Notes: generated by a model not told the origin, from the sequence alone. DNA of 64,000 nt from Candidatus Collierbacteria bacterium UBA2277 (GCA_002347045.1 DDWV01000001.1:223381-287380); one strand, 5' to 3'. Shown: positions 4,549-62,570, counted from the stretch's first letter. A program made the numbers and translations.

Positions 4549-4565
4549 CTTGTATTATAGAGTCA

Positions 4566-14043: not shown

Positions 14044-14054
14044 CTATTTTTCTG

Positions 14055-44156: not shown

Positions 44157-46058
44157 CTAATTTAGAATTACTTCTTGATCTTGATCTAGCTCTAAGACAG
44201 TCTCGTGTCCATTGAAGATGATTGTGTGCTTTATGGCCGGTGTTCCAGGCTGTTTCTGAATAAGCATTCTATAAATAGACAGATCTAAAGCTGGAAGTTC
44301 GTATTTGAAGACAATTTTACTTTGGCTTTGTGGACGCATAGTAAAGAAAGCTTCAAAGACTGTTTTGTCTAAATCTTCAGAAACTGTCTCTTTTACTTCA
44401 GAACCAACTACTGAGATTAAATTACTACCTTTTGGAACAAAGAGTCGAATGTAGTCACGATATGTGCCATTTAGACATAGTTTTCCTGCCTCAAGATTAC
44501 AGTTGTCTCCTTTTGTGGGATTGCTATAACTGATACTAACTGTTTTTGTAACAATACCGTTTGAGAGCTCAATTTCTTGTTCAACTTCACGAGTGATAAA
44601 CATGTCCGTCTTGGCGCCTCCAAGGTTAGCATCGTTAACGTGAAGATAGTCATAATCGTAAGAGGTAATTCTTCCTGCGGCGTTGAAATCTTCGGCGACC
44701 TTTTGGGTCTCGTCCTCAAAGAAGTAAAAGAGTAGATGTTTTTGCTTGATAGAGTCAAGCGCAACATTTAGAAGTTTTGGCCAAAGGTGTTTTGGACTTC
44801 CCATGGCGTTTGCCATCATTGAGTGCATAAGGGGTCCAAGGACAGTCTTTCGCCCAGTTCTAATGGTGTTTGTTGGCCTGTCAACGATTTCTTCCAAAGC
44901 ATACACCACCTGAGGACAGTTACATCGAGGATCTATCTCTGCACTGAAGTTCCCCCAACCGCCGACTCCAATTGGCCCTATCACTTTTAATATTTCGACT
45001 GGAAGCTGGGTGTCAATGGCGATAATTCCGTCGGGACGAATCATACCGGGGATGTCGTTGTAGTACTTGGTGAATGTGTCCATGGAAACTTTAAAGTCCG
45101 GTGACATGTTTGCGTTGCGTAGGTTTAAGTAGGTCTCGTTTAGATACTTTTTGATGGCGTCTGGAGCGGGAACCTTTTTTGTAAATCGTGCATCAAGGTC
45201 GTATATGTCATATGAGGAAAGTAAGTCTATCTTTCCTTTGGAAACCTTCATAAAAGAATAGGCAGTAAGGAAGCCTCCTGTGGGTCTTAACTCGGCGTCA
45301 TTTTGAAACAAAATCATGTATGTTTTTGGATCAGGGTTACCAAGTAAATCAGGGAGAAGCTTGATGAGTGGTTTTGCTTGAGTTAGTAGCTGGGCAGACT
45401 CCCCTATGGTTGACTTTACGGAAGTAATTTTGCTACGTACCTGTTTACCTCTTATTTCTTTGGGGTATCTGTTTTCGTCGATCATGGCAAGTTCTTTTTG
45501 AGCCATCTCCATTTCGGCACCAACCTTGTCTAGGTCAGGGCTAATCAAGTCTAAAGTCTGAGCCATAAAAACAATTCTGTCTTCGATAGACTGTGCTTTT
45601 GGTAATTCTCCGGAAGGGGTGGCTTCGTCAGTTTTAAAGCCTAGCAAGTCCGCGTACGGAGAGACTGAGACAATAAGTATGTCGACTGCTGTAGCAAGTG
45701 ACTTGCTGGCGTTGATTGCACGCTGTCCATCTTTTGAGTAATTTCCCAAAAGAGGAATGGCAAAGGTCCAGCGAACTTTCTGATACTTTGAGTCGAGATT
45801 GTCTATTTGTTCGGAAAGAGTTTTTACTTCAGTCTTGGCTTGAGCTAAGTCTTGATTTTGAAAGGCCTCAGAAAGTCGTCCTCCAGTAGCCTGCATATCT
45901 GCGACTGATGGCATAAGAGACTTTGCGGTGAAGTATCCATACGTTCCTGTAACAATTACAAGTAGCAAGACTACAGCTAACGGGATAAAAAAGTATAAGT
46001 ATTTCTTCTTCAAAAAGCTTAGAACGTTCTTTATTGTCATTTTTATTTTTGTTACCAT
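44157..46058 (-). CDS. DUF4012-domain membrane-anchored protein
   Basis: N-terminal TM helix and 'FQNDAELRPTGGFLTAYSF' motif. It overlaps the downstream sugar transferase gene by 7 nt. Confidence 0.55.
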   Translation of the reverse strand: MVTKIKMTIKNVLSFLKKKYLYFFIPLAVVLLLVIVTGTYGYFTAKSLMPSVADMQATGGRLSEAFQNQDLAQAKTEVKTLSEQIDNLDSKYQKVRWTFAIPLLGNYSKDGQRAINASKSLATAVDILIVSVSPYADLLGFKTDEATPSGELPKAQSIEDRIVFMAQTLDLISPDLDKVGAEMEMAQKELAMIDENRYPKEIRGKQVRSKITSVKSTIGESAQLLTQAKPLIKLLPDLLGNPDPKTYMILFQNDAELRPTGGFLTAYSFMKVSKGKIDLLSSYDIYDLDARFTKKVPAPDAIKKYLNETYLNLRNANMSPDFKVSMDTFTKYYNDIPGMIRPDGIIAIDTQLPVEILKVIGPIGVGGWGNFSAEIDPRCNCPQVVYALEEIVDRPTNTIRTGRKTVLGPLMHSMMANAMGSPKHLWPKLLNVALDSIKQKHLLFYFFEDETQKVAEDFNAAGRITSYDYDYLHVNDANLGGAKTDMFITREVEQEIELSNGIVTKTVSISYSNPTKGDNCNLEAGKLCLNGTYRDYIRLFVPKGSNLISVVGSEVKETVSEDLDKTVFEAFFTMRPQSQSKIVFKYELPALDLSIYRMLIQKQPGTPAIKHTIIFNGHETVLELDQDQEVILN

Positions 46059-46702
46059 TTACTAATCATAGCAAAAGGGGTTTTTAATAAGATATATAGA
46101 TCATAAATGATAGAGCGACGCTGAGCATAATCGGCGTCGATGGCCACTCTTTGATTCCAAGGAATTTCGTTTCTTCCAGAAACCTGCCACGGACCAGTGA
46201 TACCTGGCTTGGCAGAAAGGCTTTTTTTAATTAAACCTTTTACGTTTTTGCCATAGCGTTTTTTGGCGTCTTCTAGCTCAGGTTTAACGTAAGCTCTTGG
46301 ACCAACAAGGCTCATTTCTCCAGAAAGAACATTAAACACTTGAGGCATTTCGTCGATACTTGTTTGGCGTAGTATTCTCCCTAACTTTGTAATACGAGGA
46401 TCTTCATTTATTTCTAGCTTCCAGCCATTCCGTTTGTATTTTTCAAATATCTCGGGGTTTGCCTTCCAAAACTCAACTGCATGAGCTGCTTTACCCGCCA
46501 CTTCAAACATCTTCATAGATCGAAACTTAAACATATTGAACTTTTTACCGTTTTTCCCAACTCTTTCTGGCTTGTAAAGAATTGGCCCTTTAGAGTCAAG
46601 ACTAATTAGGATTGGAATTATTATCCAGATTGGAAGAAACAAAACGGCTAGAATTGCTGACCCAATAATATCAATCAATCTTTTGATAAAGTCGTAAAAC
46701 AT
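46052..46702 (-). CDS. Initiating phosphoglycosyl transferase (bacterial sugar transferase, PglC/WbaP C-terminal-domain type)
   Basis: Single TM helix, 'KFRSM' and 'SIDEMPQVFNVLSGEMSLVGPRA' motifs. Confidence 0.8.
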   Translation of the reverse strand: MFYDFIKRLIDIIGSAILAVLFLPIWIIIPILISLDSKGPILYKPERVGKNGKKFNMFKFRSMKMFEVAGKAAHAVEFWKANPEIFEKYKRNGWKLEINEDPRITKLGRILRQTSIDEMPQVFNVLSGEMSLVGPRAYVKPELEDAKKRYGKNVKGLIKKSLSAKPGITGPWQVSGRNEIPWNQRVAIDADYAQRRSIIYDLYILLKTPFAMISKW

Positions 46703-46789
46703 ATTTTTAGGTCTTAGGCTAGATACTTATGATTATTTTAATAGTGATTATTTGAGTATACAAACAAAGCGACCAGCACACTTGATTGT

Positions 46790-47830
46790 TTGTATATAAT
46801 ACTTTATATGATACCAGTAATAATCTGTGGAGGTGTAGGGTCAAAGATGTGGCCTCTTAGCAGTCCTAGCCTCCCCAAGCACTTTTTACCGCTTATCAAA
46901 GGTAAGTCTTTGTTTGAGTTAAACTGGGAAGTGTTAAGGACAAGGTTTGAGGCAGACAAAATCTATTTACAGACAAACGCCGAACAGGCAAAGATAGCCA
47001 AGAAAATAGTTCCAGAGATAGTAAAAGAAAACATATTTATCGAACCCGAGTCCAGAAACCAAGGTCCAGCAACTGGCTTAGCTGCCGCTTTTCTTGCCAA
47101 AAAGGGTCTAAACAAGGAACCTTTTTTCCTTATTCAAGTGGATAATTTAAGGATTCCAGGAGAAAACATCTTTAAAATGATGAACCTGGCTGAAAAGCTG
47201 GCTAAGAAAACTGATAAGTATATTACCGGAGGTTTTGTCCCTGACAGATTTATCAAAGGAGTAGATTTTCTTCTTGAGGGAGACCTGGTTGATACAGAAA
47301 ATGGGGTGAAAATTTTTAAGGTGGCTGAGTATGTGGGAAGAGATGAGACAGAAAAGATAGAAAACAACCTATCTTCCGGAAAACTATTGGTACACGCCAA
47401 TCACAGTTGTATGACCCCGGACAACATGCTTAAGATGTTTAAGGAGTATAGACCAGACTGGTACGAACCACTAAAGCGAATAATTGAGGGTGCCGATGTA
47501 GCTCTAGAGTATGCAAAAATGCCAAAGGGAGCGATTGAAGAAATAACCCAACAGGTTCATGCAAAGGGAAATTCTTTAGTGATTGAGCTTCCATTTGAGT
47601 GGACCGATTTTGGAACCTGGGAGAGCTTGGAAAAATATTATCAAGCAAATAACATTGAACCCAAAAATGGTGAGGTTGTTGAGGTGGAAGCAAAAAATAA
47701 TTTTTGCGTCAGTGACAACAAAAAGAAGATCGCCATTATTGGCTTAGACAATATTATTGTTATTGAAGGTAAAGATGGAGTATTGATTTGTCGAAAAGAT
47801 CTAAGTGGAAGAGTCGGTGAAGTAGTCTAA
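46790..47830 (+). CDS. Sugar-1-phosphate nucleotidyltransferase, mannose-1-phosphate guanylyltransferase-like
   Basis: 'MIPVIICGGVGSKMWPLS' G-loop. Confidence 0.7.
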   Translation: MYIILYMIPVIICGGVGSKMWPLSSPSLPKHFLPLIKGKSLFELNWEVLRTRFEADKIYLQTNAEQAKIAKKIVPEIVKENIFIEPESRNQGPATGLAAAFLAKKGLNKEPFFLIQVDNLRIPGENIFKMMNLAEKLAKKTDKYITGGFVPDRFIKGVDFLLEGDLVDTENGVKIFKVAEYVGRDETEKIENNLSSGKLLVHANHSCMTPDNMLKMFKEYRPDWYEPLKRIIEGADVALEYAKMPKGAIEEITQQVHAKGNSLVIELPFEWTDFGTWESLEKYYQANNIEPKNGEVVEVEAKNNFCVSDNKKKIAIIGLDNIIVIEGKDGVLICRKDLSGRVGEVV

Positions 47831-48904
47831 GCAAAAAGATTTAATCTTTGACGAAAAAATATCAATAAAGGATTTTTCGTTGAAACGTAATGCGTTTTTG
47901 TTGCAGTCTCTGGGAGAAATATTCATTTTTTCGAATTTGAGGACTGCTAGAGAAAGAGATTTTACATTTTGAAAGCTGAAGAATACCCCAGTTTTCTTAT
48001 CCACGACTGTTTCAAGAGCACCTCCCTGACCAAAAGCGATTACTGGTGTACCACAAGCTTGGGCTTCAATTGGAACTAGACCAAAGTCTTCTTCTTGAGG
48101 AAAAATTACAGCCTTGGCATGAGAGTAGTAATCAATTAGTTGAGTGTCGTTGATACCTCCCACAAACTTGATATTAGGACCAGACATTTTTTTTAGTCTA
48201 GAGTACTCTGACCCTGTGCCAACTATGATTAACGGTTTATTTAATTTATTGAATGCTGATATTGCTAGGTCAACCTTTTTGTATGGCACCAATCTAGACA
48301 CTACGAGATAGTACATTCTGTCTAAACTAGAAACTAATTTTTTTGGGTAAAATTTATCTTCAATTGATGGATAAATTACCGATGATTCACGATGATAGTA
48401 CTTCTTAATTCTCTCTTTAACTTCATTTGAAATGGCAATGTACTTATCTGGTCTTTTGGATATGAGTAAATCTACTGTTCGGAAATAACTAAGTAACCAT
48501 TGAGGAGTAATTTTCAGTTTCCAGTCTTTTTTGTACTCTCCTGTTCCGCTCCAGTAGTATCGAGTTGGAGTAAGGCAGTAACAAACGTGCAACTGACCCG
48601 GTTTTGTAACGACAGCCTTTGCATCGCTACTCGTAATGGAAATAACTACGTCAAAGCCAGATAGATCTAGTGCTTCAAAGGCCATCGGGGCCAAAGGAGC
48701 TAAGAGTTCATGACGATTTCTAAAGAAGAGAAAGCTGTTTAAAAAGGTTGCCCTTACTTTAAATACATTTGCCCAAGAAGAAGTCTTTGGCTTGTATACA
48801 AGAGTGAACAAAGGAGCTTCCGGAAATATTTTGTGAAGTGAAAGAAGTACTCTTTCAGCTCCCCCAAACTTATTGACCCTATCGTATACAAGAGCAACTT
48901 TCAT
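47801..48904 (-). CDS. Family 4 glycosyltransferase
   Basis: 'EEDFGLVPIEAQACGTPVIAF'. Confidence 0.7.
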   Translation of the reverse strand: MKVALVYDRVNKFGGAERVLLSLHKIFPEAPLFTLVYKPKTSSWANVFKVRATFLNSFLFFRNRHELLAPLAPMAFEALDLSGFDVVISITSSDAKAVVTKPGQLHVCYCLTPTRYYWSGTGEYKKDWKLKITPQWLLSYFRTVDLLISKRPDKYIAISNEVKERIKKYYHRESSVIYPSIEDKFYPKKLVSSLDRMYYLVVSRLVPYKKVDLAISAFNKLNKPLIIVGTGSEYSRLKKMSGPNIKFVGGINDTQLIDYYSHAKAVIFPQEEDFGLVPIEAQACGTPVIAFGQGGALETVVDKKTGVFFSFQNVKSLSLAVLKFEKMNISPRDCNKNALRFNEKSFIDIFSSKIKSFCLDYFTDSST

Positions 48905-50040
48905 TTCTTAATTGCTTTTTTATATACAGAAAGCGTTTTTTCTACCATTCTTACCCAGGAATACTTTCGTTGCTGAAGGTACCCCTTGGCAGAGTACTCT
49001 TCACGAAGTGTTTGATCCTTTATAAATACTTCTAAGCAGGAAACTAAGTCATCAACACTATCTGGATTAAAATAGAGTGCAGCATCTCCGTAGACCTCAG
49101 GCAAACAGCTGGCGTTAGAAGAAATTACGGGGAGACCAACTCCCATGGCTTCCAAGCCGGTTAAGCCAAAACCTTCCATCTTGCTTGGATGCACAAGGGC
49201 AAGAGCCAGGCTGTAAAGCTCTGATACTTTTTCGTCTGGAACGAAGCCAAGAAGCTTTATCCATTTTTGGAGGTTCTCTTTTTCGATTTTGTCTTTTAAT
49301 CTTTGCCAAAAAACAGAACGCGAACAGACAAGGGCAAGTTGCAAATCGACTTCTCGGTTGATATTGTGTTTTTCAATGGCTCTGATAAGAATCTCAACAT
49401 TTTTATGTGGATAAACACTTCCAGTGTAAACAATAAAGGGCCTTGAAAGATGGTATTCTTTTAGAACTTTCTTTTTCTTTTCTTCAGAAAGAGCAATCTC
49501 TTTTATTGAGTCACCCGCAGCCTCATAAGTTACAGTTATTTTTTTTGATGAAATTCCTAAACGTTTACTAACGTCGTTTTTGACATACTCTGAAGGGACA
49601 ATGATGTGTACAGATCGTTTTGCGATTAGACTGGTGAGAAATAGATATCCAAGACGCTTAATTGAGTAAAGCCACTGATGATGAGTAGTTGTGGCTGATC
49701 CCTTTGAGTCATGTTTTATAAGATCGTGGATAGTAAGAAGTAGTTTCCCCGGGTATAAAAGGGGGGCATTGAAATGCGGGACATGAAGTATGTCAAGATT
49801 TTGTCTAGCAAATATTATTGGAAGTATTAACTGTTCGGAGAAACTATATATTGGGATATTGGTGACAACAACTGTTAGTCTCTTTTTGTTTTTAAACTCT
49901 TTTGAGTGGTTTGAGTTTACAAACAAAACATAGTGGTTCTTTTTGTCTTGTACTAGAAGATTATCGACCAACTTCATGACGTAACGGCCCAGACCAGCAT
50001 GTTCAAGTCCGTATAACCGTGCGTCAATACCAATTCGCAT
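48901..50040 (-). CDS. Family 4 glycosyltransferase
   Basis: 'EGFGLTGLEAMGVGLPVISS'. Confidence 0.7.
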   Translation of the reverse strand: MRIGIDARLYGLEHAGLGRYVMKLVDNLLVQDKKNHYVLFVNSNHSKEFKNKKRLTVVVTNIPIYSFSEQLILPIIFARQNLDILHVPHFNAPLLYPGKLLLTIHDLIKHDSKGSATTTHHQWLYSIKRLGYLFLTSLIAKRSVHIIVPSEYVKNDVSKRLGISSKKITVTYEAAGDSIKEIALSEEKKKKVLKEYHLSRPFIVYTGSVYPHKNVEILIRAIEKHNINREVDLQLALVCSRSVFWQRLKDKIEKENLQKWIKLLGFVPDEKVSELYSLALALVHPSKMEGFGLTGLEAMGVGLPVISSNASCLPEVYGDAALYFNPDSVDDLVSCLEVFIKDQTLREEYSAKGYLQQRKYSWVRMVEKTLSVYKKAIKK

Positions 50041-50958
50041 TTATTTACTTAATTTATATTTCAAAACTCTTATCTTTCCCTTGACTGCAATTCCAACTAG
50101 TACTAAGGCTGTAACAAAAAAAGGATAGCGCTTACTATAAAACTTCTTGTAGAAAATTTTCCATGCATCTGCAGATGACTTGGCAATTTTAATTTTGTTT
50201 GCTTTGGAAGAGGCTGTTGATTTGGAGTTTTCTTTTCTGAGGCCTGAGCTGGCTCCACGTAAGTGAAGAGTGCTTACCTTTGGATAGTAAATTATTTTGT
50301 ATCCAGCCTCATTAATACGATAACAGAGATCGATATCTTCACCGTAGAAAAAATATGTCTCATCCCACATACCAATGTCTCTAAACAGTTTTGTTGGCAT
50401 CATCATATATGAACCGGCAGCAACCGGAATTTGATGTATTTTGTTTAGTTTTTGGAAGCCAAGATGGTAGCTATTGAAGAATGTTGACTGTGGAAATAAC
50501 TTGGCTAGGCCTGTAAACTTGGAAATTGAGGCCCAGGGGGTTGGATATCCTCGATGATTGTCGAAGTCTATGGTGCCATCTTTGAGATAAAGCTTGATAG
50601 TGATGGCGCCAACTTTTGGATGAGTCCTAAGATACTTTAGTGGCTTTACAAGGCTATATCTTTTGACTACGGTGTCGGAGTTTAGGAATAGAACATACCT
50701 TGCGTCTGAAGCTTCAACGCCAACATTGTTTGCCTTGGCAAAACCAAGATTTTCTGAGTTCTTAATACCCAAAACTGCCGGATACTTTTTGGCGACCATT
50801 TCCATAGACTCATCAACAGAAGCATTGTCTACAACTATTACTTGTAGTCCCCCTTTGGGAGAGTCTGCTCGAAAGACCGATTCCAAACAGTCATCTAGAA
50901 GCTGTTTTGTGTTGTAATTGACAATAACAATTGCGAGTTCGTTTTTGTATTTTTTCAT
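50041..50958 (-). CDS. Family 2 glycosyltransferase
   Basis: '[20 protein letters not shown]...[10 protein letters not shown]...LFLNSDT'. Confidence 0.7.
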
Positions 50959-52160
50959 TTTGTTCCTAGTTTTTGATAAATTGAGTCCAAGCTTACTGCA
51001 ATTTTACGCCAATCAAAGCTTTCTTCAACATGATTTCTTGTGGTTAAGGCTAATTTTTGCGCCAGTTTGGGTGATTTAATAACTTTTATAATTAAATCAG
51101 CGATTTTTTTGGGCGAATTGCCAATTAAAACATGGACTTTGTCTTTAACCTTTAGCCCTTCAACTCCCACTTTGGTAGAGACAATTGGTAGTTGGCTGGC
51201 CATAGCAGCAAGGTTCTTTAGGCGTGTACCGCCTGGACCTTTTATGGTTGACGCAAAAACAGAAGAGTCATGATAGGCTTTGACTAAACTATCAACGTCG
51301 TTGTCGGCGATTTCTTTTATTGTGATACCCTTTCTCCCTGACGCATGGTCTTTGATATCTTGAGTGATGTGCTGACCGAGAATCAGTAGTTTAGACTTGG
51401 GAAGAGATTTTTTTACAAGAGGAAATACGTCTTTAATTAATACATGAGCTGCTTCAATATTTTGAAGCCATTTGAAGTTACTTACAAACAGAATAGTGGA
51501 CTCTTTGGAGTTCCAGTCAGTTTTCTTTTTAAAAAGATCTAGATTAACTCCGTTTGGTACGATTTCAACCGACAAGTTGGGCTCGAGTTTGTTCATTTCT
51601 TTTTTGTCAGCTTCTGAGACTGCAATAACCTGATCTGCCCTTCGCCAATAGAAGCGTTCTGAGTGTTTTAGCTTCTCCACATCAATCTGAAGCAACGGTC
51701 GGATGTACCAAGGGGCTGTTTCATTAACATAGTGCTGATAAACTAAATACTCAATTGTTTGGTCTACTAGAATTGTGGGAATATCGGTTTTTGGGAGAGA
51801 AGGCATGACATAAAAAGTCTCGGCATGAATTAGGTCATAGTCACCTGAAGCTAGCTCTTTGGCAACAGCTTCTTTTACTCCGACAGCTGAGTTTCTAACA
51901 ATTAGGAAGGGATCCAATGAAAAGCCAGTTTTTAGTATGTTTTTGAGAGTCCAGGGAGTAGCGCTCCGGGGAAAAGTCATCACTTTTTTACAGTACTTAA
52001 GCAGATGTTTGATGTTGTTGTTTTCTTTTTTATCTTTTATGAGTGAAACAAGAGTAATCTCATTATTTTTACACAAATACTTGAGTAGGTTTAGGGTTCG
52101 TATCTGCCCTCCTGAAGAGTCTGGGTATGGCAAATATGGAGTTAGCATTAATATCTTCAT
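50955..52160 (-). CDS. Family 4 glycosyltransferase
   Basis: '[21 protein letters not shown]' GT4 N-terminal domain and C-terminal GT1 domain. Confidence 0.7.
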
Positions 52161-53593
52161 TTGGTTTTTGGTTCTAACTTGATAATGACGTACTTGTCTG
52201 TTTTTTCTATTACTTGGTATTTTTTCTCGAGATCATGCATCTCATCGTCAAAGTTTACACTAGCATAATATGTAGCTCCCTGATCAATATGTTTTTGGAT
52301 ATCATAACCAAGAGGCCAACCAGAACGGTGAGTTTGATACAGAAATGCAGTATCACCATTGTAGGGGGCAATTACTTTTGCGTCTTTGGGTGTAAGTCGG
52401 TCAATGGCTTGTCCAGCCTCGATAATTACCGGATTGTTGATCTGATAATAACCTTTTATGTCGTACCAAGAAACCAACAGCATGCCAACAAAGATAGTAA
52501 CTGTGGCAAAAAGCGTTAGGAAGCGTGAGTATGTGGCTTTTGGTAAATTTGCAAAAAGTAAAACACCTTTTGCTAAGACAAGGCACAAGAATGGAACAAT
52601 TGTGGCTTGATAGTAATCATGACGAACACTACCATCAGCTACTACAACAAAATAAATTAATACACCTATTGCCCATAACCAGTATGTAAGACCTTCTTTT
52701 TTGGGTTTTGATATCAAGCCGAGTATTAGAAAGATTGTGCCATATACACCCAGAATAAGCTTTCCAATTCGTTCACTAAACAACCATCTAAACCAAGCTG
52801 GTCTAAGGCGAATTCCGTAGTAGTTGAGTAAACCTACGCTTACGGGAATGCCTTCGGGATAAAGTTGAATGTGCTGTCTCCACAGATAAAATGGGATCAA
52901 CGAGATAAATGCATAGACGACAATATCAATAAAATTAATTTCTTTTTTCACTAGAGTCCTAAAGATAATGGCAAGATGAGGAAGAGTAAAAAACAAGGCA
53001 TATGGCTTCACCAGTATTGAAACAGCCAAAAGCAAGGCGCTTAGAAAAAAATAGATCCTTTTCTTTGTACCCAGATTATCAACCGTTTGTAAAAGAAACC
53101 AAAAGGATCCCAAGAAAGTAGCTATCATCAACGGCTCCGGAAGAATCACCCTTGAGTAAAAAATATTAAAAGGAAGAACTGCCATGAACAAGGCAGCGAT
53201 TAGGCCTGTCTTGTATCCAGATAATTTCTTTCCAATAAGGTAGACGAAAATTATTGAGACTAGAGAAATTATTACCGATGTTAGTCTGCCTGATTTGTCG
53301 ATTCCCCAGGCTGGATAAGCCTTGTAAACCGCTAGATGCAGTCCATTGTAGAGCGGCATCTCTACCATGCGATATCCGCCCGGATTATCAAAGCCTGACT
53401 GGATGTTGGATACGTCGTGATAAGTTGGGACAAAAATATTTAGACCTTTCTCGGAAAAATTTCGGGTAACCGAGGCAGTGTCAGCTTGACGAAAAGAGTG
53501 CCAGTCTGCAACAGGATTGTCTATCTTGTAAAGCCTGAGAAACAAAGCTAGTACTAAAATTGAAAAAAGGACTAAAGGTTTAACTATTTTCAT
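52157..53593 (-). CDS. GT-C fold membrane glycosyltransferase, PMT_2/ArnT-like (second copy)
   Basis: 478 aa, multi-TM, first-loop motif 'DNPVADWHSFRQADTA' and downstream PMT-like segment. Confidence 0.55.
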   Translation of the reverse strand: MKIVKPLVLFSILVLALFLRLYKIDNPVADWHSFRQADTASVTRNFSEKGLNIFVPTYHDVSNIQSGFDNPGGYRMVEMPLYNGLHLAVYKAYPAWGIDKSGRLTSVIISLVSIIFVYLIGKKLSGYKTGLIAALFMAVLPFNIFYSRVILPEPLMIATFLGSFWFLLQTVDNLGTKKRIYFFLSALLLAVSILVKPYALFFTLPHLAIIFRTLVKKEINFIDIVVYAFISLIPFYLWRQHIQLYPEGIPVSVGLLNYYGIRLRPAWFRWLFSERIGKLILGVYGTIFLILGLISKPKKEGLTYWLWAIGVLIYFVVVADGSVRHDYYQATIVPFLCLVLAKGVLLFANLPKATYSRFLTLFATVTIFVGMLLVSWYDIKGYYQINNPVIIEAGQAIDRLTPKDAKVIAPYNGDTAFLYQTHRSGWPLGYDIQKHIDQGATYYASVNFDDEMHDLEKKYQVIEKTDKYVIIKLEPKTK

Positions 53594-54921
53594 GATTTTG
53601 TACTGAGTGCTAATCCCATGTATGCCCAGAAGAGTATCGCAATCTTGCTGGCTTCAAAAACATCAAGAAATATCGCGGTAGTTGCGAAAGAGAGCAAGAT
53701 ACCAATCGCTGAGATAGTGAAAAGTTTGTCCATTCCCTTTTGACCAGTAAGGTTGTTTTTTAACTTTAAGAAAAGCCCAGCCAGTATTGACAGGAAAGCC
53801 ATCAGTCCTAGAAGACCAGTTTCACCTAGAGATCTTAGATAATCATTGTCTGTGGCTAGACCCAGTGAGGAAAACCCTGTGCCAAAAAGAGGATTTTTGT
53901 AAAAAGACCGAAGAGACATAGGCCACTCTACGTCTAACCTGATACTGGTAGAGGTGTCTTGCTGGATAGAGCGAAGAGCTTCTGTTGGCACTGCTGTAGG
54001 CGTTGCTGTAGGAGATGGTAAGACTGTTGCGTAAACTGGTTTTGCGATATGTACTTCAGAAGTAAAAACCTTAATGATAGACATAAATCGGCCTATGAAA
54101 GAGGGAGAGGTGATCACAAACAGCGACAAAACAATCATTAGGAAAAGACCCAAGAAATACTGACGATAAAGATAACAAATTGTGGCTACAGACAAGAATA
54201 AGCCAAAGAGAGCGATTCTGGATCCGGCTTGCATAAACATCCAAAGAATTGCTAAAAAGAAAATAAAGATAGGAACACGAGTCAGCCATTTTTTTAGTTG
54301 ACAGAGAATAGCTGTAAGGAAAGAAAGAATCATCATAAAATATACTGCAAGGTCATAGTGTCCTGCAAAAGTACTAGACAAAGGAACCCCAGGGCGAAGT
54401 GTCAATGCCATTCCCTTACTTGCTTCGGCATCCATAGTAGATATTACAGGCGCCTTGAAATAAATTTGGGCTAAACCATAAAGAAAGACCCCAATAGCAG
54501 CACAAAGACTAATCTCAAGGAAGTATTTTCTTGTGGCTTGGTCTTTACTTGCCCATAAGACTAAAAAGAAGATTGAAAAATACTCAACTCGACGGAATAA
54601 ATGAAGTGCGGCAACCGATGGAACGATATTTTTTGTAATCAATAAGGCTGAGATCAACGAAAAGGTGCCTATTAGAAGATAAACACCGATCTGAAGCCAC
54701 AAGGGTGGTGTTTTTATTTTTTTAACAAAGAGAAGTCGAAGAAAAAATATCAGCCAGACTGAGGCAATAAGAAAATCTTCTGCTCTGATCTGTACATAAG
54801 TAAAAGGAACCGTAAACAAAGGAAACTTTGGATAAAGCGGTATAAAAATTAGTACTGCGGCAACAGAGTACTTAAAAAATGAGTCCAAGAGCCTGTGTGT
54901 ATGCACTTTTAGCTTTTTCAT
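53590..54921 (-). CDS. O-antigen ligase/polymerase-like (Wzy_C) membrane protein (second copy)
   Basis: 443 aa, about 11 TM helices, Thr/Pro-rich periplasmic loop. It is adjacent to the GT-C gene. Confidence 0.5.
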   Translation of the reverse strand: MKKLKVHTHRLLDSFFKYSVAAVLIFIPLYPKFPLFTVPFTYVQIRAEDFLIASVWLIFFLRLLFVKKIKTPPLWLQIGVYLLIGTFSLISALLITKNIVPSVAALHLFRRVEYFSIFFLVLWASKDQATRKYFLEISLCAAIGVFLYGLAQIYFKAPVISTMDAEASKGMALTLRPGVPLSSTFAGHYDLAVYFMMILSFLTAILCQLKKWLTRVPIFIFFLAILWMFMQAGSRIALFGLFLSVATICYLYRQYFLGLFLMIVLSLFVITSPSFIGRFMSIIKVFTSEVHIAKPVYATVLPSPTATPTAVPTEALRSIQQDTSTSIRLDVEWPMSLRSFYKNPLFGTGFSSLGLATDNDYLRSLGETGLLGLMAFLSILAGLFLKLKNNLTGQKGMDKLFTISAIGILLSFATTAIFLDVFEASKIAILFWAYMGLALSTKS

Positions 54922-55780
54922 CTCCTTTGATTATCCCAAATATTAACAGGCGAAGCAATGAACCACATAAAAAGAAAAACTTTATGAACGGAAGCTGCCA
55001 TTTTGGCTTGTGTTTTTTCCAAAAATAAATCATGTTTTTAATCTCACTGGTAAGCGCAAAGACAGACCCCCCTGACGCTCCCCCTAAGTGGATGATCGAA
55101 GGTGAAATTTGATAAACAGTTTTGTAACCTAGCTTTCTCAGACGGAAACAAAGCTCCATTTCTTCGGTGTACATAAAGATATTTTCATCAAATCCATCTA
55201 CTTGATCGTAGACATCTTTGGGAATAATCATAAAAGCACCTGTAATCCAGTCCATTTGTCTATTCCTATTGTAAGAGGAAAGCTGCGGATGAAATGAAGG
55301 AATTAAGGAGCCGATAAAAGGCAGGTCATCGATAAAGAACTGCCAGGCAAAAACGTTTCCAAATGTGGGGAAGTGACCTCCGGAAGCCTGAACAGTTTTA
55401 TCTGCATTTAAAAGCTTGCATGAATAGACTCCAACATCGGAAAGTTTTTTGAGATTGTCTAGCGACTCTTTGATTGCGTTATCAAAAATAAGAGTATCAG
55501 AGTTTAAAAGAAGCAGATACTCACCCTTGGCTTTTTTGGCACCGAGATTATTTGCCTTGCCAAAACCTACGTTTGCCTTGGCATCAACGAAACGAACTTG
55601 GGGATATTTTTTTTCTAGTTCTTTGATACGCTCTATTGAGCCGTCTTTGGAATCATTATCTACGACGATAATTTCATAGGTAATACCCTTGGTGTATTTA
55701 ACAATCGACTTTATACAATTAGTAAGGATTTCTCGCGTGTTAAAGGAGACTGTGATTATCGAAAGGTCAAGTTTAGGCAT
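54872..55780 (-). CDS. Family 2 glycosyltransferase
   Basis: 'LSIITVSFNT...IIVVDNDSKDGS...LLLNSDT'. Confidence 0.7.
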   Translation of the reverse strand: MPKLDLSIITVSFNTREILTNCIKSIVKYTKGITYEIIVVDNDSKDGSIERIKELEKKYPQVRFVDAKANVGFGKANNLGAKKAKGEYLLLLNSDTLIFDNAIKESLDNLKKLSDVGVYSCKLLNADKTVQASGGHFPTFGNVFAWQFFIDDLPFIGSLIPSFHPQLSSYNRNRQMDWITGAFMIIPKDVYDQVDGFDENIFMYTEEMELCFRLRKLGYKTVYQISPSIIHLGGASGGSVFALTSEIKNMIYFWKKHKPKWQLPFIKFFFLCGSLLRLLIFGIIKGDEKAKSAYTQALGLIF

Positions 55781-56330
55781 ATGAAGCGATAGTTTTCTTA
55801 ACTGATTTGCTTAGCAAGTAGATTGAGGGAAAGACCAGAGTCCACACCAAAACCCTTGCCCAAGGTGAAGAGCTGGTTGGCTTTAGTGTAACTTTACTAA
55901 CAAAAGGCACTCCCCGAAATGAAATCTGGGGAATTTCTTTTTTGTCTTTGCCGGCATATCGAGGTGAGTGTGTTGGCTCCCAACCGTTTACAAAAAGAGA
56001 GCTGTGAAAAGGATAGACAATTTCTTCGAGGTAGTAGCTACTTAACTGGTCTCGAACCAAAGAGTATGACTCTTCAGGACGATAGTTTAATCTGTACGAA
56101 GGAATCTTTACTCCAAAGAGGGTAAGTGAAAACTTGGATTGCATTTCGTTGAGAACTTGTTCACGATCACTGTTTGTGTAAAAACCTTTTTGATCTGGAT
56201 GTTGCCAAGTATCACCTGGTTCATCTGACCTTTCTGCTTGTGACAATTCGGGTACTTCTGGAGTAGGAAGAAGTAAATATGAAAGGCCGATAAGATATAT
56301 GAATAGTACTATTGGCAGCTTTAGTTTCAT
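55773..56330 (-). CDS. Hypothetical protein with N- and C-terminal hydrophobic segments
   Basis: Overlaps both neighbours by 8 nt. No family recognised. Confidence 0.4.
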   Translation of the reverse strand: MKLKLPIVLFIYLIGLSYLLLPTPEVPELSQAERSDEPGDTWQHPDQKGFYTNSDREQVLNEMQSKFSLTLFGVKIPSYRLNYRPEESYSLVRDQLSSYYLEEIVYPFHSSLFVNGWEPTHSPRYAGKDKKEIPQISFRGVPFVSKVTLKPTSSSPWARVLVWTLVFPSIYLLSKSVKKTIASYA

Positions 56331-56962
56331 TGAAAAAGCCTAGCTCTCCCCAGTTTGTAATTTTGTTTTTTCAAAGGTCTTTCCCCTATTACTTTAGCCG
56401 GTACTCCGCCCACGATAGCATTTGCGGGAACATTTTTGGTGACAACTGCACCGCCAGCAACAACTGCACCATCTCCGATGGTGACTCCTGGCATAATAAT
56501 TGATCTAGGACCAATAAAAACATAACTACCTACACTGACCGGTTCTTCAATGGCTGTAAATAAAGGATCTTGGAGGTCGTGCTCCGAGTTGTAGATCATT
56601 ACTTCTGAGGCTATATCGGTATGCTTGCCGATTGTTATCTTCGCCCGGCCATCAAAAAAGGCGTGGTCGCCAATGATGGTACCTTCACCTACTTGAATGT
56701 TCTGGGGTTTGTAGAAACGTGCACCCATGTGGAAGGTTGCTCCTTTGCCGAGCTTGATACCGGCGAGAAAATAGAAAAATTTTCTTACTGTGTGGCTTGG
56801 AAAGTAGCCAACAATCCAAAGAAGGTAAAGCTCCAAGTCAAGAAAGAAGCTGAAAAATCGACCAAAAATTTTGACAAAGGCCTTGGAAACTGGTAATTTT
56901 TGATTGTTTTTGTCAAAAAAGTAAACTCCGTTGGACGATATATTTAGATTCGCTATTTTCAT
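56327..56962 (-). CDS. Hexapeptide-repeat (LbH) sugar O-acetyltransferase
   Basis: Repeated [LIV]GxxxxI hexapeptides: 'IGKHTDIASEVMI', 'IGPRSIIMPGVTIGDGAVVAGGAVV'. Confidence 0.75.
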   Translation of the reverse strand: MKIANLNISSNGVYFFDKNNQKLPVSKAFVKIFGRFFSFFLDLELYLLWIVGYFPSHTVRKFFYFLAGIKLGKGATFHMGARFYKPQNIQVGEGTIIGDHAFFDGRAKITIGKHTDIASEVMIYNSEHDLQDPLFTAIEEPVSVGSYVFIGPRSIIMPGVTIGDGAVVAGGAVVTKNVPANAIVGGVPAKVIGERPLKKQNYKLGRARLFQ

Positions 56963-58074
56963 ACTGTTTTTAGTATTTGTAGTATTTTTTGGGCTGAGAC
57001 TTCCCAGTCAAAACGCTTGGTGTTTTCTTTGCCCTCTTTTATGAGTTTAAGTCTTTCTGAGGAAGAAAGCGAAAGAACTTTGTCGAGAGCTAGCTTGATA
57101 CTATCTATAGACATGGGATCTTCGATATAGATAGCGGACTCTCCTGCTACTTCAGGAAGAGAAGAAACCTTTGAAACTACGATTGGAGTACCAACGGCTT
57201 GAGCCTCAACAGCCGGCATGCCAAAACCTTCATAAAGACTTGGAAGGACAAAGGCTCTACTCCCCTTGATTAAGGCTGGTAAATCGTCGTTTGGAGCAAA
57301 ACCCGTAAAGATTACTCTATGACTTATACCTAAGTTCTTGGCTTGTTCTAGTATTTGTTCGTATAGCCAGCCTTTTTTTCCGCAGATTACAAGCTTTAGC
57401 TGAGGTTTGTCTATCTTTGCAAAAGCTTCAATCAAGCGATTAATGTTTTTTCTTGGCTGGAGAGTACCCCAGTACAAAAGGTAGCTGCCGGTGATACTGT
57501 ATTTCTTTTTTACTGAAACTACTTTTGTTTTGGGTACTTTTCCATGGTAAACCTCTCGATCAAAAGCGGGATAGACTACCTCAACCTTTTCAGGACTTGT
57601 TCCGTATAGCTTAATTATTTCGCTTTTGGAAAACTCAGAGATAGTGATTACTTTTTTGGATTTTTTCACTGATAAAGGAGTCCATTTTTTTAGCTGATTT
57701 ATGTCGTAGTTTGTGAAGTACTCTGTGCCGAATCTCTCAAAACTCATGTCCATGAGATAGATAACAGACTTGGTTGGAGAAAATAACGGAGTGTAATGAC
57801 TAGGAGAAAACAAAACGTCGATCTTGGGCCGGCCAAACCAAAGTCTTTTTGTAAGACTTGTCAAAACCCAAGCTTTTTTGGATCCAAAAATTTCATAAAT
57901 TAAATTATTTGAACCAACTGGCATGTCTGGAAGAGGTCTTTCCTTACCCAGGGCGATCATCTTGTCATCGCCTGAAACCTGCTTTACTAAATGGAAAAAC
58001 GTATTGTAGGCAACTTGATTTACACCAACGCGTTGGGGAATATTTGCTTCGTTGATATCAAAACCTATGTTCAT
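56959..58074 (-). CDS. Family 4 glycosyltransferase
   Basis: 'EGFGMPAVEAQAVGTPIVVS'. Confidence 0.7.
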   Translation of the reverse strand: MNIGFDINEANIPQRVGVNQVAYNTFFHLVKQVSGDDKMIALGKERPLPDMPVGSNNLIYEIFGSKKAWVLTSLTKRLWFGRPKIDVLFSPSHYTPLFSPTKSVIYLMDMSFERFGTEYFTNYDINQLKKWTPLSVKKSKKVITISEFSKSEIIKLYGTSPEKVEVVYPAFDREVYHGKVPKTKVVSVKKKYSITGSYLLYWGTLQPRKNINRLIEAFAKIDKPQLKLVICGKKGWLYEQILEQAKNLGISHRVIFTGFAPNDDLPALIKGSRAFVLPSLYEGFGMPAVEAQAVGTPIVVSKVSSLPEVAGESAIYIEDPMSIDSIKLALDKVLSLSSSERLKLIKEGKENTKRFDWEVSAQKILQILKTV

Positions 58075-59171
58075 TGTATGTTTTCTTTTAACACTTCTAG
58101 ATATACCTGATATGTACTTTCAGCAGCTTTTTCCCAAGTGAATTTTGCTGCTTGCACGAGACTCTTTTCTCTGAGTTCAGCTCTGTTTTTGATAGCCTCA
58201 ATTATACCAGCCGCGATACCCTCTGTACTCTCTGGATCAAAAAGGACTCCAGCCTCACCCACAACCTCAGGAAGTGAGCTAATATCACTAACGGCAACTG
58301 CAGCTCCACAGGCCATTGCTTGAAGAGGTGGAAGACCAAAGCCTTCGTAGATACTTGGAAGAACAAAGGCCAAACAGCCAGAGTAAAGCCCCGGTAAGTC
58401 TGCGTCGGGAATGTAACCTGGCATAGAGACTCCTTCGATCGGTTTGGGAATCTCTCCCCAACCAGTCTTTCCCCCAATTACCAACTGAAGATTTGGATAC
58501 TCTTTTTTTACCAGAGCAAAAGCTTTGATTAATCTTGCTTGATTTTTTCTAGGCTCTAATGTGGAAAGAGTAAAAATATAGTCTTCGTTAATTTTGTAGC
58601 GTTTTTTAATTGTTTCTTGGATATCGATGGACTGGGGACGGTATCGGTCTTCTACACCCTCCGGAATTACGACAATTTTTTCTTCAGGGATTTTTAAGAC
58701 GGAAATTAAATCTTCTTTGGTTGACTGACTTACGGCAATTATCTTGGCAGACTCTCTCATAACCCAGGCAAGACGTTTTTTGTGTGTGTTTCGAATCGAT
58801 TCGGTGGTGGTTTGAGGAAATTTAAAAGGGATTAGGTCGTGAACAGTTGTCACCTTGGGAATTCTGGACGGGGGTTCTGTCCAGTCTGAGGTGTGGATTA
58901 TATCCACCTGACCAACGAGCTTTTCTACCGGGAGAATATGAAGAGAGTTCCAGAGAAAATCCATAAAAGTTGGCGGAAAAGGATATACCTTGGGAATTCC
59001 TTTCAGTTTTTTTATTAGCGCGGATAGCTCACCTCGGCGACGAAGAGAACCTCCAAATAGAACAAACATGTCGTCGGGATAAAGCTTGATTAAGTAGGCA
59101 GCAATATTTTTAGTGTAAACAGACACACCTGTTCCATATATGGCCTGGGAGATGTCGATGGCAATTTTCAT
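58071..59171 (-). CDS. Family 4 glycosyltransferase
   Basis: 'EGFGLPPLQAMACGAAVAVS'. Confidence 0.7.
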   Translation of the reverse strand: MKIAIDISQAIYGTGVSVYTKNIAAYLIKLYPDDMFVLFGGSLRRRGELSALIKKLKGIPKVYPFPPTFMDFLWNSLHILPVEKLVGQVDIIHTSDWTEPPSRIPKVTTVHDLIPFKFPQTTTESIRNTHKKRLAWVMRESAKIIAVSQSTKEDLISVLKIPEEKIVVIPEGVEDRYRPQSIDIQETIKKRYKINEDYIFTLSTLEPRKNQARLIKAFALVKKEYPNLQLVIGGKTGWGEIPKPIEGVSMPGYIPDADLPGLYSGCLAFVLPSIYEGFGLPPLQAMACGAAVAVSDISSLPEVVGEAGVLFDPESTEGIAAGIIEAIKNRAELREKSLVQAAKFTWEKAAESTYQVYLEVLKENIQ

Positions 59172-60472
59172 GGTTTAGGTAGAAAAAGCTGATAATTTCC
59201 GATTTTATCTACCCCGATATAGTTTATTCTAATATACTCAAGGACTCTCCCGCTTTCTAAAGCGATATTTTTACCATCTATCTCGGACTCAAAATCTACA
59301 AGAACGAAGGACTTGGACTTCTCAAGGGACAAGATAATTTTGTCGACAAAGTCTTCTTGACTTAGATACCAAGGAAGCGAAGGAACATAGGTGTAGTTTG
59401 GAGGAATCTTGTCTGAAAGCTGATAAAGAATGTCTGGTGCACCCAAAAGGTATATTTCTATCCCTGGAATTTCTTTGATCTCTTGAACTGCTTTATGAAT
59501 ATCTGGGGTGAGATAAAAATTTCCATAGGGGTGTCTGATGGCAGAGATTAGATTTAGAAGAAAAAGACAAAAAATGAATGAGTAGACGATAATCCCTGGT
59601 TTTTTTTGCAGTAAAGACCAAAACAGGACACCAATCAAAAATACTGGCTGTAAATGTTCGTAGCCAAATCGAGGAAAAAGAAGAAGAACAGATAGAGCTA
59701 TCACTCCAAAATACAAGTATTTTTTGTATTTGATAATTTGGGACACAAGAGGAGCAACCCAGACCAACAAGAAGAAAATCTGCCTTTTTCCAGGCAGCAG
59801 AGAAGCTTCTTTTGGGTATACGGATTGGTTAAACTGGATTGTCAAACGATAAAAGTCTGTGAATATTTCTTGTTTTAGTATAAAAAGAGCAGGAATGGCT
59901 AGGCCAGAAAGACCTCCGAAAAATAGTGACCACGAAAGACCTGAAAAAGAAAATAACAGAATAAGAAGAGCAGGTGTAAATGTGGGTCTAAGTAAAATAA
60001 TTTGCGAGAGAAGAAAGCCAGACACAAAACGGCGAAGATTGTTTTTGGAAAAGGATAAAAATAGCCAAACTGCCAGTAGTAAGTTTACAAACGTTTCAAT
60101 CCAGAGAATGTTTCCTGAAAAATAAACTGATGTTAGGATAAAAAGAATCAACCAAACCAAGGGTTTTTTCACTTTGAAACGATACAGTGAAGCATAGAGA
60201 AAAATATCAGTAAGACAAAGGGTAAGTAAAAAGAGAGCTAAAAGTGGCCAAGGATTAACGGTAAGGAAACTTGGGAGAGAAAATGGGCCGAAGAGAAGAG
60301 AGGGAAAATGTTGGTCGATAATATCTCGATACGGTAGAAAGCCTCGACTGACAAGGTAAGGATATAAAGTAAACTCAGGTGACAAAAAATATCCCCGAGC
60401 CAAGATCAGAGAAATGTGAAAAATTAAGGCTGATGGAAGAAAAGAAACCTTAAGATTTTTTAGAAGTCTCAT
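59168..60472 (-). CDS. Polytopic membrane protein, possible GT-C-type glycosyltransferase (start placed at internal ATG 60472)
   Basis: About 12 TM helices. With the start at 60472 (MRLLKNLK...) the gene begins 1 nt after the upstream GT2 stop instead of overlapping it by 139 nt. Confidence 0.4.
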   Translation of the reverse strand: MRLLKNLKVSFLPSALIFHISLILARGYFLSPEFTLYPYLVSRGFLPYRDIIDQHFPSLLFGPFSLPSFLTVNPWPLLALFLLTLCLTDIFLYASLYRFKVKKPLVWLILFILTSVYFSGNILWIETFVNLLLAVWLFLSFSKNNLRRFVSGFLLSQIILLRPTFTPALLILLFSFSGLSWSLFFGGLSGLAIPALFILKQEIFTDFYRLTIQFNQSVYPKEASLLPGKRQIFFLLVWVAPLVSQIIKYKKYLYFGVIALSVLLLFPRFGYEHLQPVFLIGVLFWSLLQKKPGIIVYSFIFCLFLLNLISAIRHPYGNFYLTPDIHKAVQEIKEIPGIEIYLLGAPDILYQLSDKIPPNYTYVPSLPWYLSQEDFVDKIILSLEKSKSFVLVDFESEIDGKNIALESGRVLEYIRINYIGVDKIGNYQLFLPKP

Positions 60473-61194
60473 TTGGATGTTCTTACTTTTACTGTATGAG
60501 TGATGTAATAAACAGCCTGAAGATAACTTAGAAAAAGACCGTGATAGCCGTCCAAAAAGCCTAGCTTGTAAATATATCGTTTGAAATAGTCTCGCAAAAA
60601 CCACCAAGAAGGAAAGCTTTGCTTTTGTTTTACGGACAGCTCTGAGTAACGATCAATTTTTTCGATAAACTCTGAGACTGTTTCATAGTTTTTGTGAACT
60701 AAAAAGTTTTTTAGCTTACCGGCTTTATTGGTTGTCACGTACTCTTCGTGTACAAGACTTTTCCAAGCTCCATGTCCTTTTTTATAAAGCCAGATGTGAC
60801 AGTCGTCTTGTGGACCCCAGTCGGTGTGATAAATAGGTTTACCCCAGATTAAATTTAGGCGAGGAATAAAGTAGGCTGAGAATTTTTTTGACTTTATCGC
60901 ACTGCGTATCTCTGTTGCTAGATCGGAAGAAACAACGACGTCAGCCTCGAGAGAGAGTATCCAGTCCCCTTTTGCTTCTCTTGCACCAAAATTTCTGGTA
61001 TCTGAAAATGAAGAAAATGGATGGTGAATAACTCTGGCTCCATAATTCTTGGCTATCTCTACAGTCTTGTCTGTGGACCCTGAGTCGACTACTAGAATTT
61101 CATCTGCAAAATCTTTTACTGAAGCGAGAGTTTTGTACAAGTCTATCTCCTCGTTGAGCGTAGGGATAACGACGGTTAGTTTGGCTTTGGCCAT
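60469..61194 (-). CDS. Family 2 glycosyltransferase (start at internal ATG 61194)
   Basis: 'MAKAKLTVVIPTLNEE...ILVVDSGSTD'. The annotated longer ORF would overlap the divergent galE promoter region. Confidence 0.7.
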   Translation of the reverse strand: MAKAKLTVVIPTLNEEIDLYKTLASVKDFADEILVVDSGSTDKTVEIAKNYGARVIHHPFSSFSDTRNFGAREAKGDWILSLEADVVVSSDLATEIRSAIKSKKFSAYFIPRLNLIWGKPIYHTDWGPQDDCHIWLYKKGHGAWKSLVHEEYVTTNKAGKLKNFLVHKNYETVSEFIEKIDRYSELSVKQKQSFPSWWFLRDYFKRYIYKLGFLDGYHGLFLSYLQAVYYITHTVKVRTSK

Positions 61195-61223
61195 AAAAGG
61201 ATTATATTCGATATAATGTACTA

Positions 61224-62201: not shown

Positions 62202-62203
62202 TT

Positions 62204-62476: not shown

Positions 62477-62499
62477 CTTTGTCTTAAATCTAATTAGTT

Positions 62500-62525: not shown

Positions 62526-62570
62526 TTCAAATTATGTAGTCTTTTTATTCGGGTATCGTTCGGTCAGGTT

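Follow-up and report, generated by a model that had tools for sequence, protein, structure and literature searches.

A 64,000-nucleotide (nt) stretch of DNA from Candidatus Collierbacteria bacterium UBA2277 (GCA_002347045.1 DDWV01000001.1:223381-287380), here called the window, carries two gene clusters for the assembly of envelope glycans, and each cluster contains a pair of genes for membrane enzymes. In cluster 2 the pair consists of WzyC2 (53590-54921), a 443-amino acid (aa) polytopic Wzy_C protein with a WaaL/SEDS-like fold, and PMT2 (52157-53593), a 478-aa glycosyltransferase (GT) of the GT-C type that is like those of families GT39 and GT83. The cluster 1 pair consists of WzyC1 (298-1368), a Wzy_C protein of 356 aa, and GTC1 (1365-2699), a GT-C-fold protein of 444 aa. 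All four open reading frames (ORFs) are on the minus strand, exactly where a preliminary description of the window had placed them. The members of each pair are adjacent and overlapping, as it said; they are translationally coupled through 4 nt (ATGA) in which the upstream stop lies over the downstream start. The Wzy_C domain that it named was recovered in both proteins (Pfam PF04932, cut-off 31.7 bits), with 46.4 bits for WzyC2 and 43.2 bits for WzyC1. Conservation was followed in two samples, as follows. For cluster 2, 80 species-level genomes were retrieved via the PMT2 family, with Collier-, Woese-, Shapiro-, Gottesman- and Blackburnbacteria among them. For cluster 1, 80 metagenome loci plus L006 and L007 were used, and the counts refer to the testable subset each time. 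A further homolog search, independent of the 80 genomes, covered 1.84 billion representative proteins.

The catalytic residues of the Wzy_C proteins were mapped by local motif and hidden Markov model alignment, with E. coli K-12 WaaL as the reference. R215 of WaaL corresponds to R235 in WzyC2 and R195 in WzyC1, and R288 corresponds to R328 and R250, respectively. The WaaL motif H338-N-x9-G-xx-G is matched position for position by D358-N-x9-G-xx-G in WzyC2 and by D285-N-x9-G-xx-G in WzyC1, with Asp in place of His. Both arginines and the Asp are invariant in alignment A2. Asp is present at the ligase-His position in at least 68 of 80 scored WzyC2 orthologs, fused forms (see below) included, and in 53 of 63 WzyC1 orthologs, several of the remaining ones being truncated ORFs. 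That is, the acceptor-activating His of the ligases (H-[NSQ]-x9-G-xx-[GTY]; H338 in E. coli) is absent from both Wzy_C proteins. The functionally important WaaL residues R215, R288, and H338 have been equated with R224, R298, and H349 of PglL (PMC3643930). In the part of the work of Meitil et al. (2024, PMC10920833) that is drawn on here, two arginines of clan GT-C1 enzymes bind undecaprenyl diphosphate (Und-PP). The ligase position is occupied by His in O-ligases and by Asp or Glu in SEDS proteins and in all but one family of inverting Wzy polymerases, the BP-Pols (PMC10920833). The combination expected of a BP-Pol, one or two conserved Arg plus an Asp or Glu aligned with the ligase His, is found in both proteins of the window, and in this they are like the Wzy polymerases. 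Since the two arginines are kept and Asp replaces His, both bear, under the same rule (PMC10920833), the polymerase/SEDS signature and not that of ligases and PglL. The most probable identity of both Wzy_C proteins is that of inverting Wzy-type polymerases of clan GT-C1, with a WaaL/SEDS-like fold.

The second strand of evidence is the constancy with which the polymerase candidate and the GT-C occur together. Across the 80 genomes, the order of about 14 cluster 2 genes is kept: GT4, GT4, hexapeptide acyltransferase, (185-aa protein), GT2c, Wzy_C, PMT_2, GT4, GT2, GT4, GT4, (ManC), Bac_transf phosphoglycosyltransferase, DUF4012, RecO. Wzy_C lies no more than 60 nt upstream of PMT_2 in 62 of the 80 loci, and 37 of those 62 have the same 4-nt overlap. 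A single Wzy_C::PMT_2 ORF is present in 8 loci, the arrangement is different in 6, and 4 loci are cut at their edge. The adjacency of Wzy_C and PMT_2 is far above chance. Fused loci (L039, L045, L051, L055, L072, and L085, at ~8.3-11.5 kb in each) belong to Gottesmanbacteria and related genomes and come from several independent assemblies. In the fused ORFs, of 1032-1060 aa, Wzy_C occupies roughly residues 1-510 and PMT_2 roughly residues 546-1040, with a K/R-rich linker in between (e.g., in L045, L055, and L072, from three Gottesmanbacteria assemblies), and Pfam detects both domains within one polypeptide. The fusion was found again in the search of 1.84 billion proteins (P0371 and P0397; P0366 is truncated). 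The position of the basic linker, just ahead of the first transmembrane helix (TM1) of the GT-C, is compatible with a topology that places both active sites on the outer side. The pairing and the fusion suggest a physical coupling of chain assembly with extracytoplasmic sugar addition.

The GT-C members of the two pairs differ in how they can be recognized. PMT2 has the PMT_2 domain (Pfam, 47.4 bits; cut-off 26.1), and its orthologs in the 80 genomes are 43-70% identical. In its first outer loop D30, W31, H32, R35, Q36, and D38 are invariant, D30 and D38 in 34 orthologs. GTC1 matches no Pfam or NCBIfam family, and 3 of its 46 orthologs match GT87 or PMT weakly. An AlphaFold2 model built from the 46 orthologs (pLDDT 91.7) has ArnT 5EZM as its best Foldseek match (E 5.8e-7, TMq 0.62), and then ALG9, STT3, AftD, PimE, and Pmt4. 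According to the model, GTC1 is a GT-C-fold enzyme closest to ArnT, and not a recognizable PMT_2 member. The preliminary description, which called both proteins PMT_2/ArnT-like, was therefore right about PMT2 and about the predicted fold of GTC1 but not about the family membership of the latter. In the loop after TM1 of GTC1, E30 and D34 are invariant among the 46 orthologs. Invariant acidic loop residues after TM1 are thus present in both GT-Cs, as expected for outer-face GT-C catalysis. Acidic residues in the first outer loop and a C-terminal soluble domain are features that they have in common with ArnT (GT83) and PMT (GT39), of the GT-C_A fold. In contrast to ArnT and PMT, GTC1 is outside any sequence family, and the GT-Cs here are paired with a Wzy_C enzyme.

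Each GT-C is also accompanied by a small GT2. GT2c (54872-55780, minus strand; Pfam Glycos_transf_2), a 302-aa protein with one C-terminal hydrophobic helix, lies directly upstream of WzyC2. Its PDB sequence matches include DPMS 5MLZ (E 1.8e-10), though it resembles other GT2s just as well, and it is a candidate polyprenyl-phosphate-sugar synthase for PMT2. In the search of 1.84 billion proteins, an in-frame GT2c::PMT_2 fusion was seen (P0365, L169:819-3218), with an N-terminal domain 40% identical to 54872-55780. It is on one 4.6-kb contig from one sample, without Wzy_C or GT4 between or after the two domains. In cluster 1, a 244-aa soluble GT2, GT2s1 (2675-3409, minus strand), is the upstream partner of GTC1 and precedes it in 63 of 65 testable loci. 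The close linkage of each GT-C to a GT2, with one case of fusion, points to a monosaccharide carried on undecaprenyl phosphate (Und-P) as the GT-C donor. With a Bac_transf enzyme as the primer, the donor of the Wzy_C proteins would for its part be diphosphate-linked.

We propose, with slightly better than even confidence, that the pairs are Wzy-type polymerases coupled to a branch-adding system made of GT2 and GT-C. Cluster 2 (44157-63993; contents by Pfam) is on the minus strand except for ManC and an epimerase. Its first half holds the DUF4012 gene, the Bac_transf phosphoglycosyltransferase (46052-46702), ManC (plus strand), GT4, GT4, GT2, GT4, PMT2, WzyC2, and GT2c. The rest holds the 185-aa protein, the hexapeptide acyltransferase, GT4, GT4, a 434-aa polytopic protein (59168-60472), a GT2 (60469-61356), the epimerase (plus strand), a methyltransferase, and GT4. 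In the proposed pathway, a lipid-linked oligosaccharide would be built on Und-PP, with Bac_transf as the primer and seven GT4 and GT2 enzymes and the acyltransferase extending and modifying it; ManC would supply GDP-mannose. The unit would be flipped, maybe by the sole recognizable Wzx, which is located in cluster 1, and polymerized by WzyC2. The invariant Asp would activate a sugar hydroxyl of the incoming unit, to which the chain would be joined. GT2c would load one sugar onto Und-P in the cytoplasm. PMT2, physically coupled to the polymerase, would then attach that sugar to the same glycan on the outer side, where it would be a branch or a priming sugar. Cluster 1 would work likewise with its own GTs, Wzx, Acyl_transf_3, GT2s1, GTC1, and WzyC1, and perhaps with the cluster 2 primer.

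Two other divisions of labor within a pair can be considered. The first is that Wzy_C polymerizes and the GT-C is the final transferase, passing the polymer en bloc to an acceptor in the manner of WpsJ or STT3, and not an adder of single-sugar branches. The fusion, like the tight coupling, is suggestive of successive steps. STT3, AglB, and PglB, whose donors are diphosphate-linked, are also similar to the GTC1 model, and no LCP enzyme is encoded in the window. However, the best matches, ArnT and PMT, use monophosphate donors, and the tight linkage of a GT2 to each GT-C points to an Und-P-monosaccharide; we consider such a role of the GT-C very unlikely. The second is that the Wzy_C and GT-C unit, a single polypeptide in Gottesmanbacteria, is a two-step "prime and extend" machine. 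The PMT/ArnT-like half would set a first Und-P sugar on an acceptor (Ser/Thr of a surface, S-layer, or Ig-like protein, or a membrane lipid), and the WaaL-like half would add the seven-GT Und-PP oligosaccharide en bloc. This is rather improbable in our judgment. If true, a class-wide conserved glycoconjugate would come from a previously undescribed kind of O-glycosylation system.

The polymerase and branch-adding proposal has relatives among known systems. Decoration of monoderm wall polysaccharides by extracytoplasmic systems of a GT-A and a GT-C has been described (PMC9574508), and in streptococci pairs of GT2 and GT-C O-glycosylate proteins (10.1101/2024.05.05.592596). Such multi-component systems (GtrA/B/C; CsdA/B with CflA; GtrB with PgtC2; PgfS with PgfM1) have a GT2 beside a GT-C and act outside the membrane on a glycan or protein via a polyprenyl-phosphate sugar, as we propose here. 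Unlike them, the clusters of the window have no GtrA-like flippase that we could see, their GT-Cs are ArnT/PMT-like and not YfhO-like, and these are located beside a polymerase or fused to it. A Wzy_C-type enzyme coupled to a second transferase that acts on the same acceptor is known in WadA, a bimodular ligase (GT121 and GT25) whose GT25 part adds the last core sugar before ligation (PMC10920833). Here, however, a membrane GT-C takes the place of the soluble GT25 as the fusion partner. In the dual-chain assembly of Lactococcus (WpsI/WpsH/WpsJ), a GT-C joins or polymerizes lipid-linked oligosaccharides. A further difference is that the Wzy_C donor of the window, with a Bac_transf primer, would be diphosphate-linked.

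Cluster 1 (298-10522, minus strand; contents by Pfam and NCBIfam, synteny in its sample of loci) has the order WzyC1, GTC1, GT2s1, Acyl_transf_3, methyltransferase (plus strand), GT2, GT4, Wzx-like flippase (7273-8577), GT4, GT2. The Wzx-like protein has weak MatE and WZX_like matches, and its orthologs match Polysacc_synt. WzyC1 comes directly after GTC1 in 48 of 62 loci; of the 14 others, most have it ~1.3 kb downstream. No GTC1-WzyC1 fusions were found in cluster 1 loci. One such gap, in L127, holds an extra 462-aa GT-C-like ORF between GTC1 and Wzy_C (L127:9441-10829), with TM1 followed by an FDEPVH loop and no Pfam match. A gap of this size recurs in a subclade of loci (L128-L142), the extra ORF itself having been inspected in L127 alone.

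At the other side of WzyC1 the window begins within a gene for an Ig-like protein, the C-terminal part of which is at 5-301 on the plus strand, with the N-terminus beyond the window start. The whole protein has ~235 aa, an N-terminal anchor, and two Ig-like domains. Its convergent gene overlaps Wzy_C at the 3' end in 49 of 52 cluster 1 loci. It stays with Wzy_C even where GTC1 identity has fallen to 32%, and in L007 Wzy_C is still beside it though 5 kb from the GT-C. The ortholog in L006 (11389-12111) bears Big_6, Big_13, and Glucodextran_B. No Ig-like neighbor gene is found beside WzyC2. The Ig-like protein could be a substrate, or it could be an accessory subunit comparable to the class B penicillin-binding protein (bPBP) that accompanies SEDS or to Wzz with Wzy. 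Beyond the other end of the cluster, at 10552-13209 (plus strand), a secreted protein of 885 aa is encoded that combines an LCAT/alpha-beta-hydrolase lipase domain with Ig-like domains (Big_13/Big_3_3) at its C-terminus. In other genomes as well (L006, L007, L091, and others), it is conserved as a divergent neighbor of cluster 1.

This neighborhood bears on the proposal of the preliminary description that the pairs may be protein O-glycosylation machinery, possibly directed at Ig-like surface proteins. The Wzy_C proteins would then be O-oligosaccharyltransferases like PglL, PilO, or WsaB, which move a preassembled oligosaccharide from Und-PP to surface proteins, e.g., the Ig-like ones, and the PMT-like GT-C would mannosylate or prime proteins. 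A Wzy_C domain and a WaaL-like fold are common to O-oligosaccharyltransferases. WzyC1 is beside a membrane-anchored Ig-like protein, a candidate surface target, even when it is apart from GTC1, and PglL genes often adjoin their targets (PMC3643930). A non-repeating oligosaccharide would agree with the seven GTs and the lack of Wzz. The streptococcal GT2 and GT-C pairs act on proteins (10.1101/2024.05.05.592596), and the best PDB sequence match of GT2s1 is the GT2 domain of GmaR, a flagellin glycosyltransferase (E 1.6e-8). Nevertheless, the His that is common to WaaL and PglL (H338/H349, PMC3643930) is Asp in both proteins and in nearly all of their orthologs. PglL_A (PF15864) has no match in WzyC1 or WzyC2 at E <= 0.1. 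The Ig-like neighbor is convergent, not co-oriented, and could equally be an accessory subunit, and no convincing Ser/Thr-rich acceptor tracts were found in window proteins. We therefore consider protein glycosylation of the PglL/PilO type quite unlikely; a functional link of WzyC1 to an Ig-like surface protein does have genuine support from the gene context. The preliminary description had itself named clustering with Wzy polymerases in Wzz operons as a finding that would speak against its proposal. Only half of this is seen here, namely a polymerase-like catalytic signature; Wzz is not encoded in the window.

The latter point returns us to the polymerase reading, against which there are several observations. 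In the Wzx/Wzy pathway, as here, a polytopic Wzy_C protein is encoded in an operon with a phosphoglycosyltransferase, acyltransferases, and many GT4 and GT2 enzymes; a Wzx-like flippase is present in cluster 1. Unlike that pathway, neither a Wzz/PCP co-polymerase nor an LCP ligase was found among the 54 window ORFs of at least 150 aa. Cluster 2 has no recognizable flippase and cluster 1 no initiating phosphoglycosyltransferase. That is, neither cluster is a complete Wzx/Wzy pathway alone, the phosphoglycosyltransferase being confined to cluster 2 and Wzx to cluster 1. No GtrA-like flippase with four transmembrane helices was found in the annotated ORFs of either cluster, ORFs below 150 aa having had no systematic scan. 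Seven cytoplasmic GTs and a primer imply an unusually large repeat unit, and a non-repeating oligosaccharide fits equally well. The Asp/His rule derives from family-level alignments and not from experiments on these proteins (PMC10920833). The assignment as Wzy, made by motif, is to the type of enzyme and not to a specific CAZy BP-Pol family, and the GT2c::PMT2 fusion is that of a single short contig. Finally, class-wide conservation is atypical for Wzy polymerases. These are usually hypervariable, with the enterobacterial common antigen system as a conserved counter-example, whereas the operons here are conserved throughout the class and their polymerase is translationally coupled, in some lineages fused, to a GT-C.

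Some of the same observations would suit a ligase. The Wzy_C proteins show what is expected of the WaaL fold, namely a GT-C_B fold of 12 transmembrane helices with a long outer loop, similar to 7TPG, and the closest solved structure to a Wzy_C protein is a ligase. Such matches came from fold comparison alone; in PDB sequence searches, neither the single Wzy_C and GT-C proteins nor their profiles had any match. Polymerase and ligase are chemically alike, as both move a glycan from Und-PP to a sugar hydroxyl. A finished Und-PP-glycan might be transferred en bloc to a non-protein acceptor, either a glycolipid anchor or a second glycan, and the GT-C would build or prime that acceptor. TacL, the pneumococcal lipoteichoic acid ligase, may be a comparable case. 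The lack of Wzz agrees with this, and the complementary contents of the two clusters, which occur on the same contigs, would be expected if two chains are joined. Fusion of Wzy_C to a transferase recalls WadA (PMC10920833), and the Lactococcus GT-C WpsJ links one glycan to another (PMC9574508). On the other hand, the catalytic residue is Asp, not His, and the polymer would be left without a separate polymerase; we regard a ligase of this kind as unlikely. The O-antigen ligase WaaL (GT121, 7TPG/7TPJ) has in common with the Wzy_C proteins the fold and the two Und-PP-binding arginines, but its His338 is replaced in them by the invariant Asp. Genes for lipopolysaccharide were not seen in the window. 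The Microgenomatia, of the Candidate Phyla Radiation (CPR), are monoderm-like, and such a host is assumed to have no lipid A-core acceptor. PglL and PilO have a Wzy_C domain too, and an equivalent of their His349 and the PglL_A motif are absent here.

The two pairs are not duplicates of one another, as the preliminary description had taken them to be and on whose mutual homology its proposal depended. WzyC1 and WzyC2 share one stretch of 53 aa with 28% identity (BLASTP, E 6e-5). The GT-Cs give a BLASTP E of 2.2 and no signal in hhalign, and the gene order is inverted, as the GT-C comes first in cluster 1 but second, after Wzy_C, in cluster 2. These three results rule out a recent duplication of the pair. 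The sole clear paralogy between the clusters near the pairs is that of two GT2s, 2675-3409 and 60469-61356 (34% identity, BLASTP E 1.7e-32), each of which precedes a polytopic protein (1365-2699 and 59168-60472, respectively). What does hold of the earlier view is that there are two distinct, parallel Wzy_C and GT-C modules with different companion glycosyltransferases.

The term "islands", applied earlier to the two clusters, does not fit their genomic setting. The window is part of a 646,801-bp contig, and homologs of its proteins are in Collierbacteria, Woesebacteria, and other Microgenomates. Between clusters 1 and 2 are mraW, ftsI, mraY, ftsW, murG, ftsQ, ftsA, and ftsZ together with housekeeping genes. 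The GC content is flat (0.34-0.43) throughout the window, and its sole tRNA gene, tRNA-Val(CAC), is at ~14 kb (14054-14128). Several other genomes, too, have long contigs that hold both clusters. Since cell-division (dcw) and housekeeping genes lie between them, GC content is flat, and synteny is strict in many genomes, the clusters are chromosomal core regions. A mobile or variable character is ruled out by the flat GC content, the lone tRNA at 14 kb, and the strict synteny. The window is thus a piece of a Microgenomatia (CPR/Patescibacteria) chromosome in which lineage-conserved envelope-glycan assembly operons flank the dcw cluster. Two glycan operons are conserved gene for gene beside cell-division genes; it follows that their product is probably a shared surface glycan like a "common antigen", and not a set of variable capsules.

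The proteins all belong to superfamilies already described, and the scheme as a whole follows that of known lipid-linked glycan assembly. What appears to be new is that two such operons are conserved gene for gene throughout the class Microgenomatia, as well as the obligatory grouping of GT2, GT-C, and Wzy_C, the natural Wzy_C::PMT_2 fusion, and the conserved Ig-like partner gene. A literature search found no paper that names both Wzy_C and PMT_2 domains, and one on glycan clusters of CPR or Microgenomates found nothing specific and no description of these clusters. CPR bacteria are ultra-small and mostly uncultured, and their envelopes are chemically uncharacterized. CPR phages may use the conserved glycan as a receptor, and it is a candidate for host attachment, too. 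The fused protein would lend itself to structure prediction, cryo-EM, and heterologous assays.

Three further proteins of cluster 2 deserve mention. GTCx (59168-60472, minus strand), the 434-aa polytopic protein with a soluble C-terminal domain, is preceded by the GT2s paralog at 60469-61356 (minus strand), which makes a second pairing of a small GT2 and a polytopic protein within the cluster. GTCx has no Pfam match, and its family gave no profile-profile signal (hhalign) with the GTC1 family. Its slot holds a PMT_2 protein in L003, and it is possibly a third GT-C. The listed TTG start of this ORF, at 60607, is probably wrong, as the ATG at 60472 agrees with the orthologs. The DUF4012 protein (44157-46058, minus strand), of 633 aa with one N-terminal transmembrane helix, always follows the phosphoglycosyltransferase. 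A 185-aa protein with a single transmembrane helix (55773-56330, minus strand) is conserved inside the cluster. Either of the last two could be a stand-in for the missing chain-length regulator. In the literature DUF4012 is mentioned only as enriched in CPR and Gram-positive bacteria.

Other observations concern the region between the clusters and the sequence records. Two SEDS paralogs of the FtsW/RodA family, 36% identical, are encoded within the same 64 kb (17439-18494 and 35636-36715, both on the minus strand); one is inside the dcw cluster and the other is beside a class I aminoacyl-tRNA synthetase gene (18496-21459). In many records (L008, L011, L013, L057, and more), contigs in synteny with the Microgenomatia operon have titles such as "uncultured Pseudomonadales", "Gammaproteobacteria", "Spirochaetia", and "Bathyarchaeia", which indicates mislabeled or contaminated records of metagenome-assembled genomes. 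Adjoining tRNA-Val(CAC) is a 207-aa ORF (13248-13871, minus strand), the C-terminal half of which is Pfam PF25186, Tad4, a Type I Thoeris inhibitor (E 1.9e-22, 80 bits; cut-off 25). An anti-defense-type domain is unexpected in a cellular core region of a CPR chromosome.

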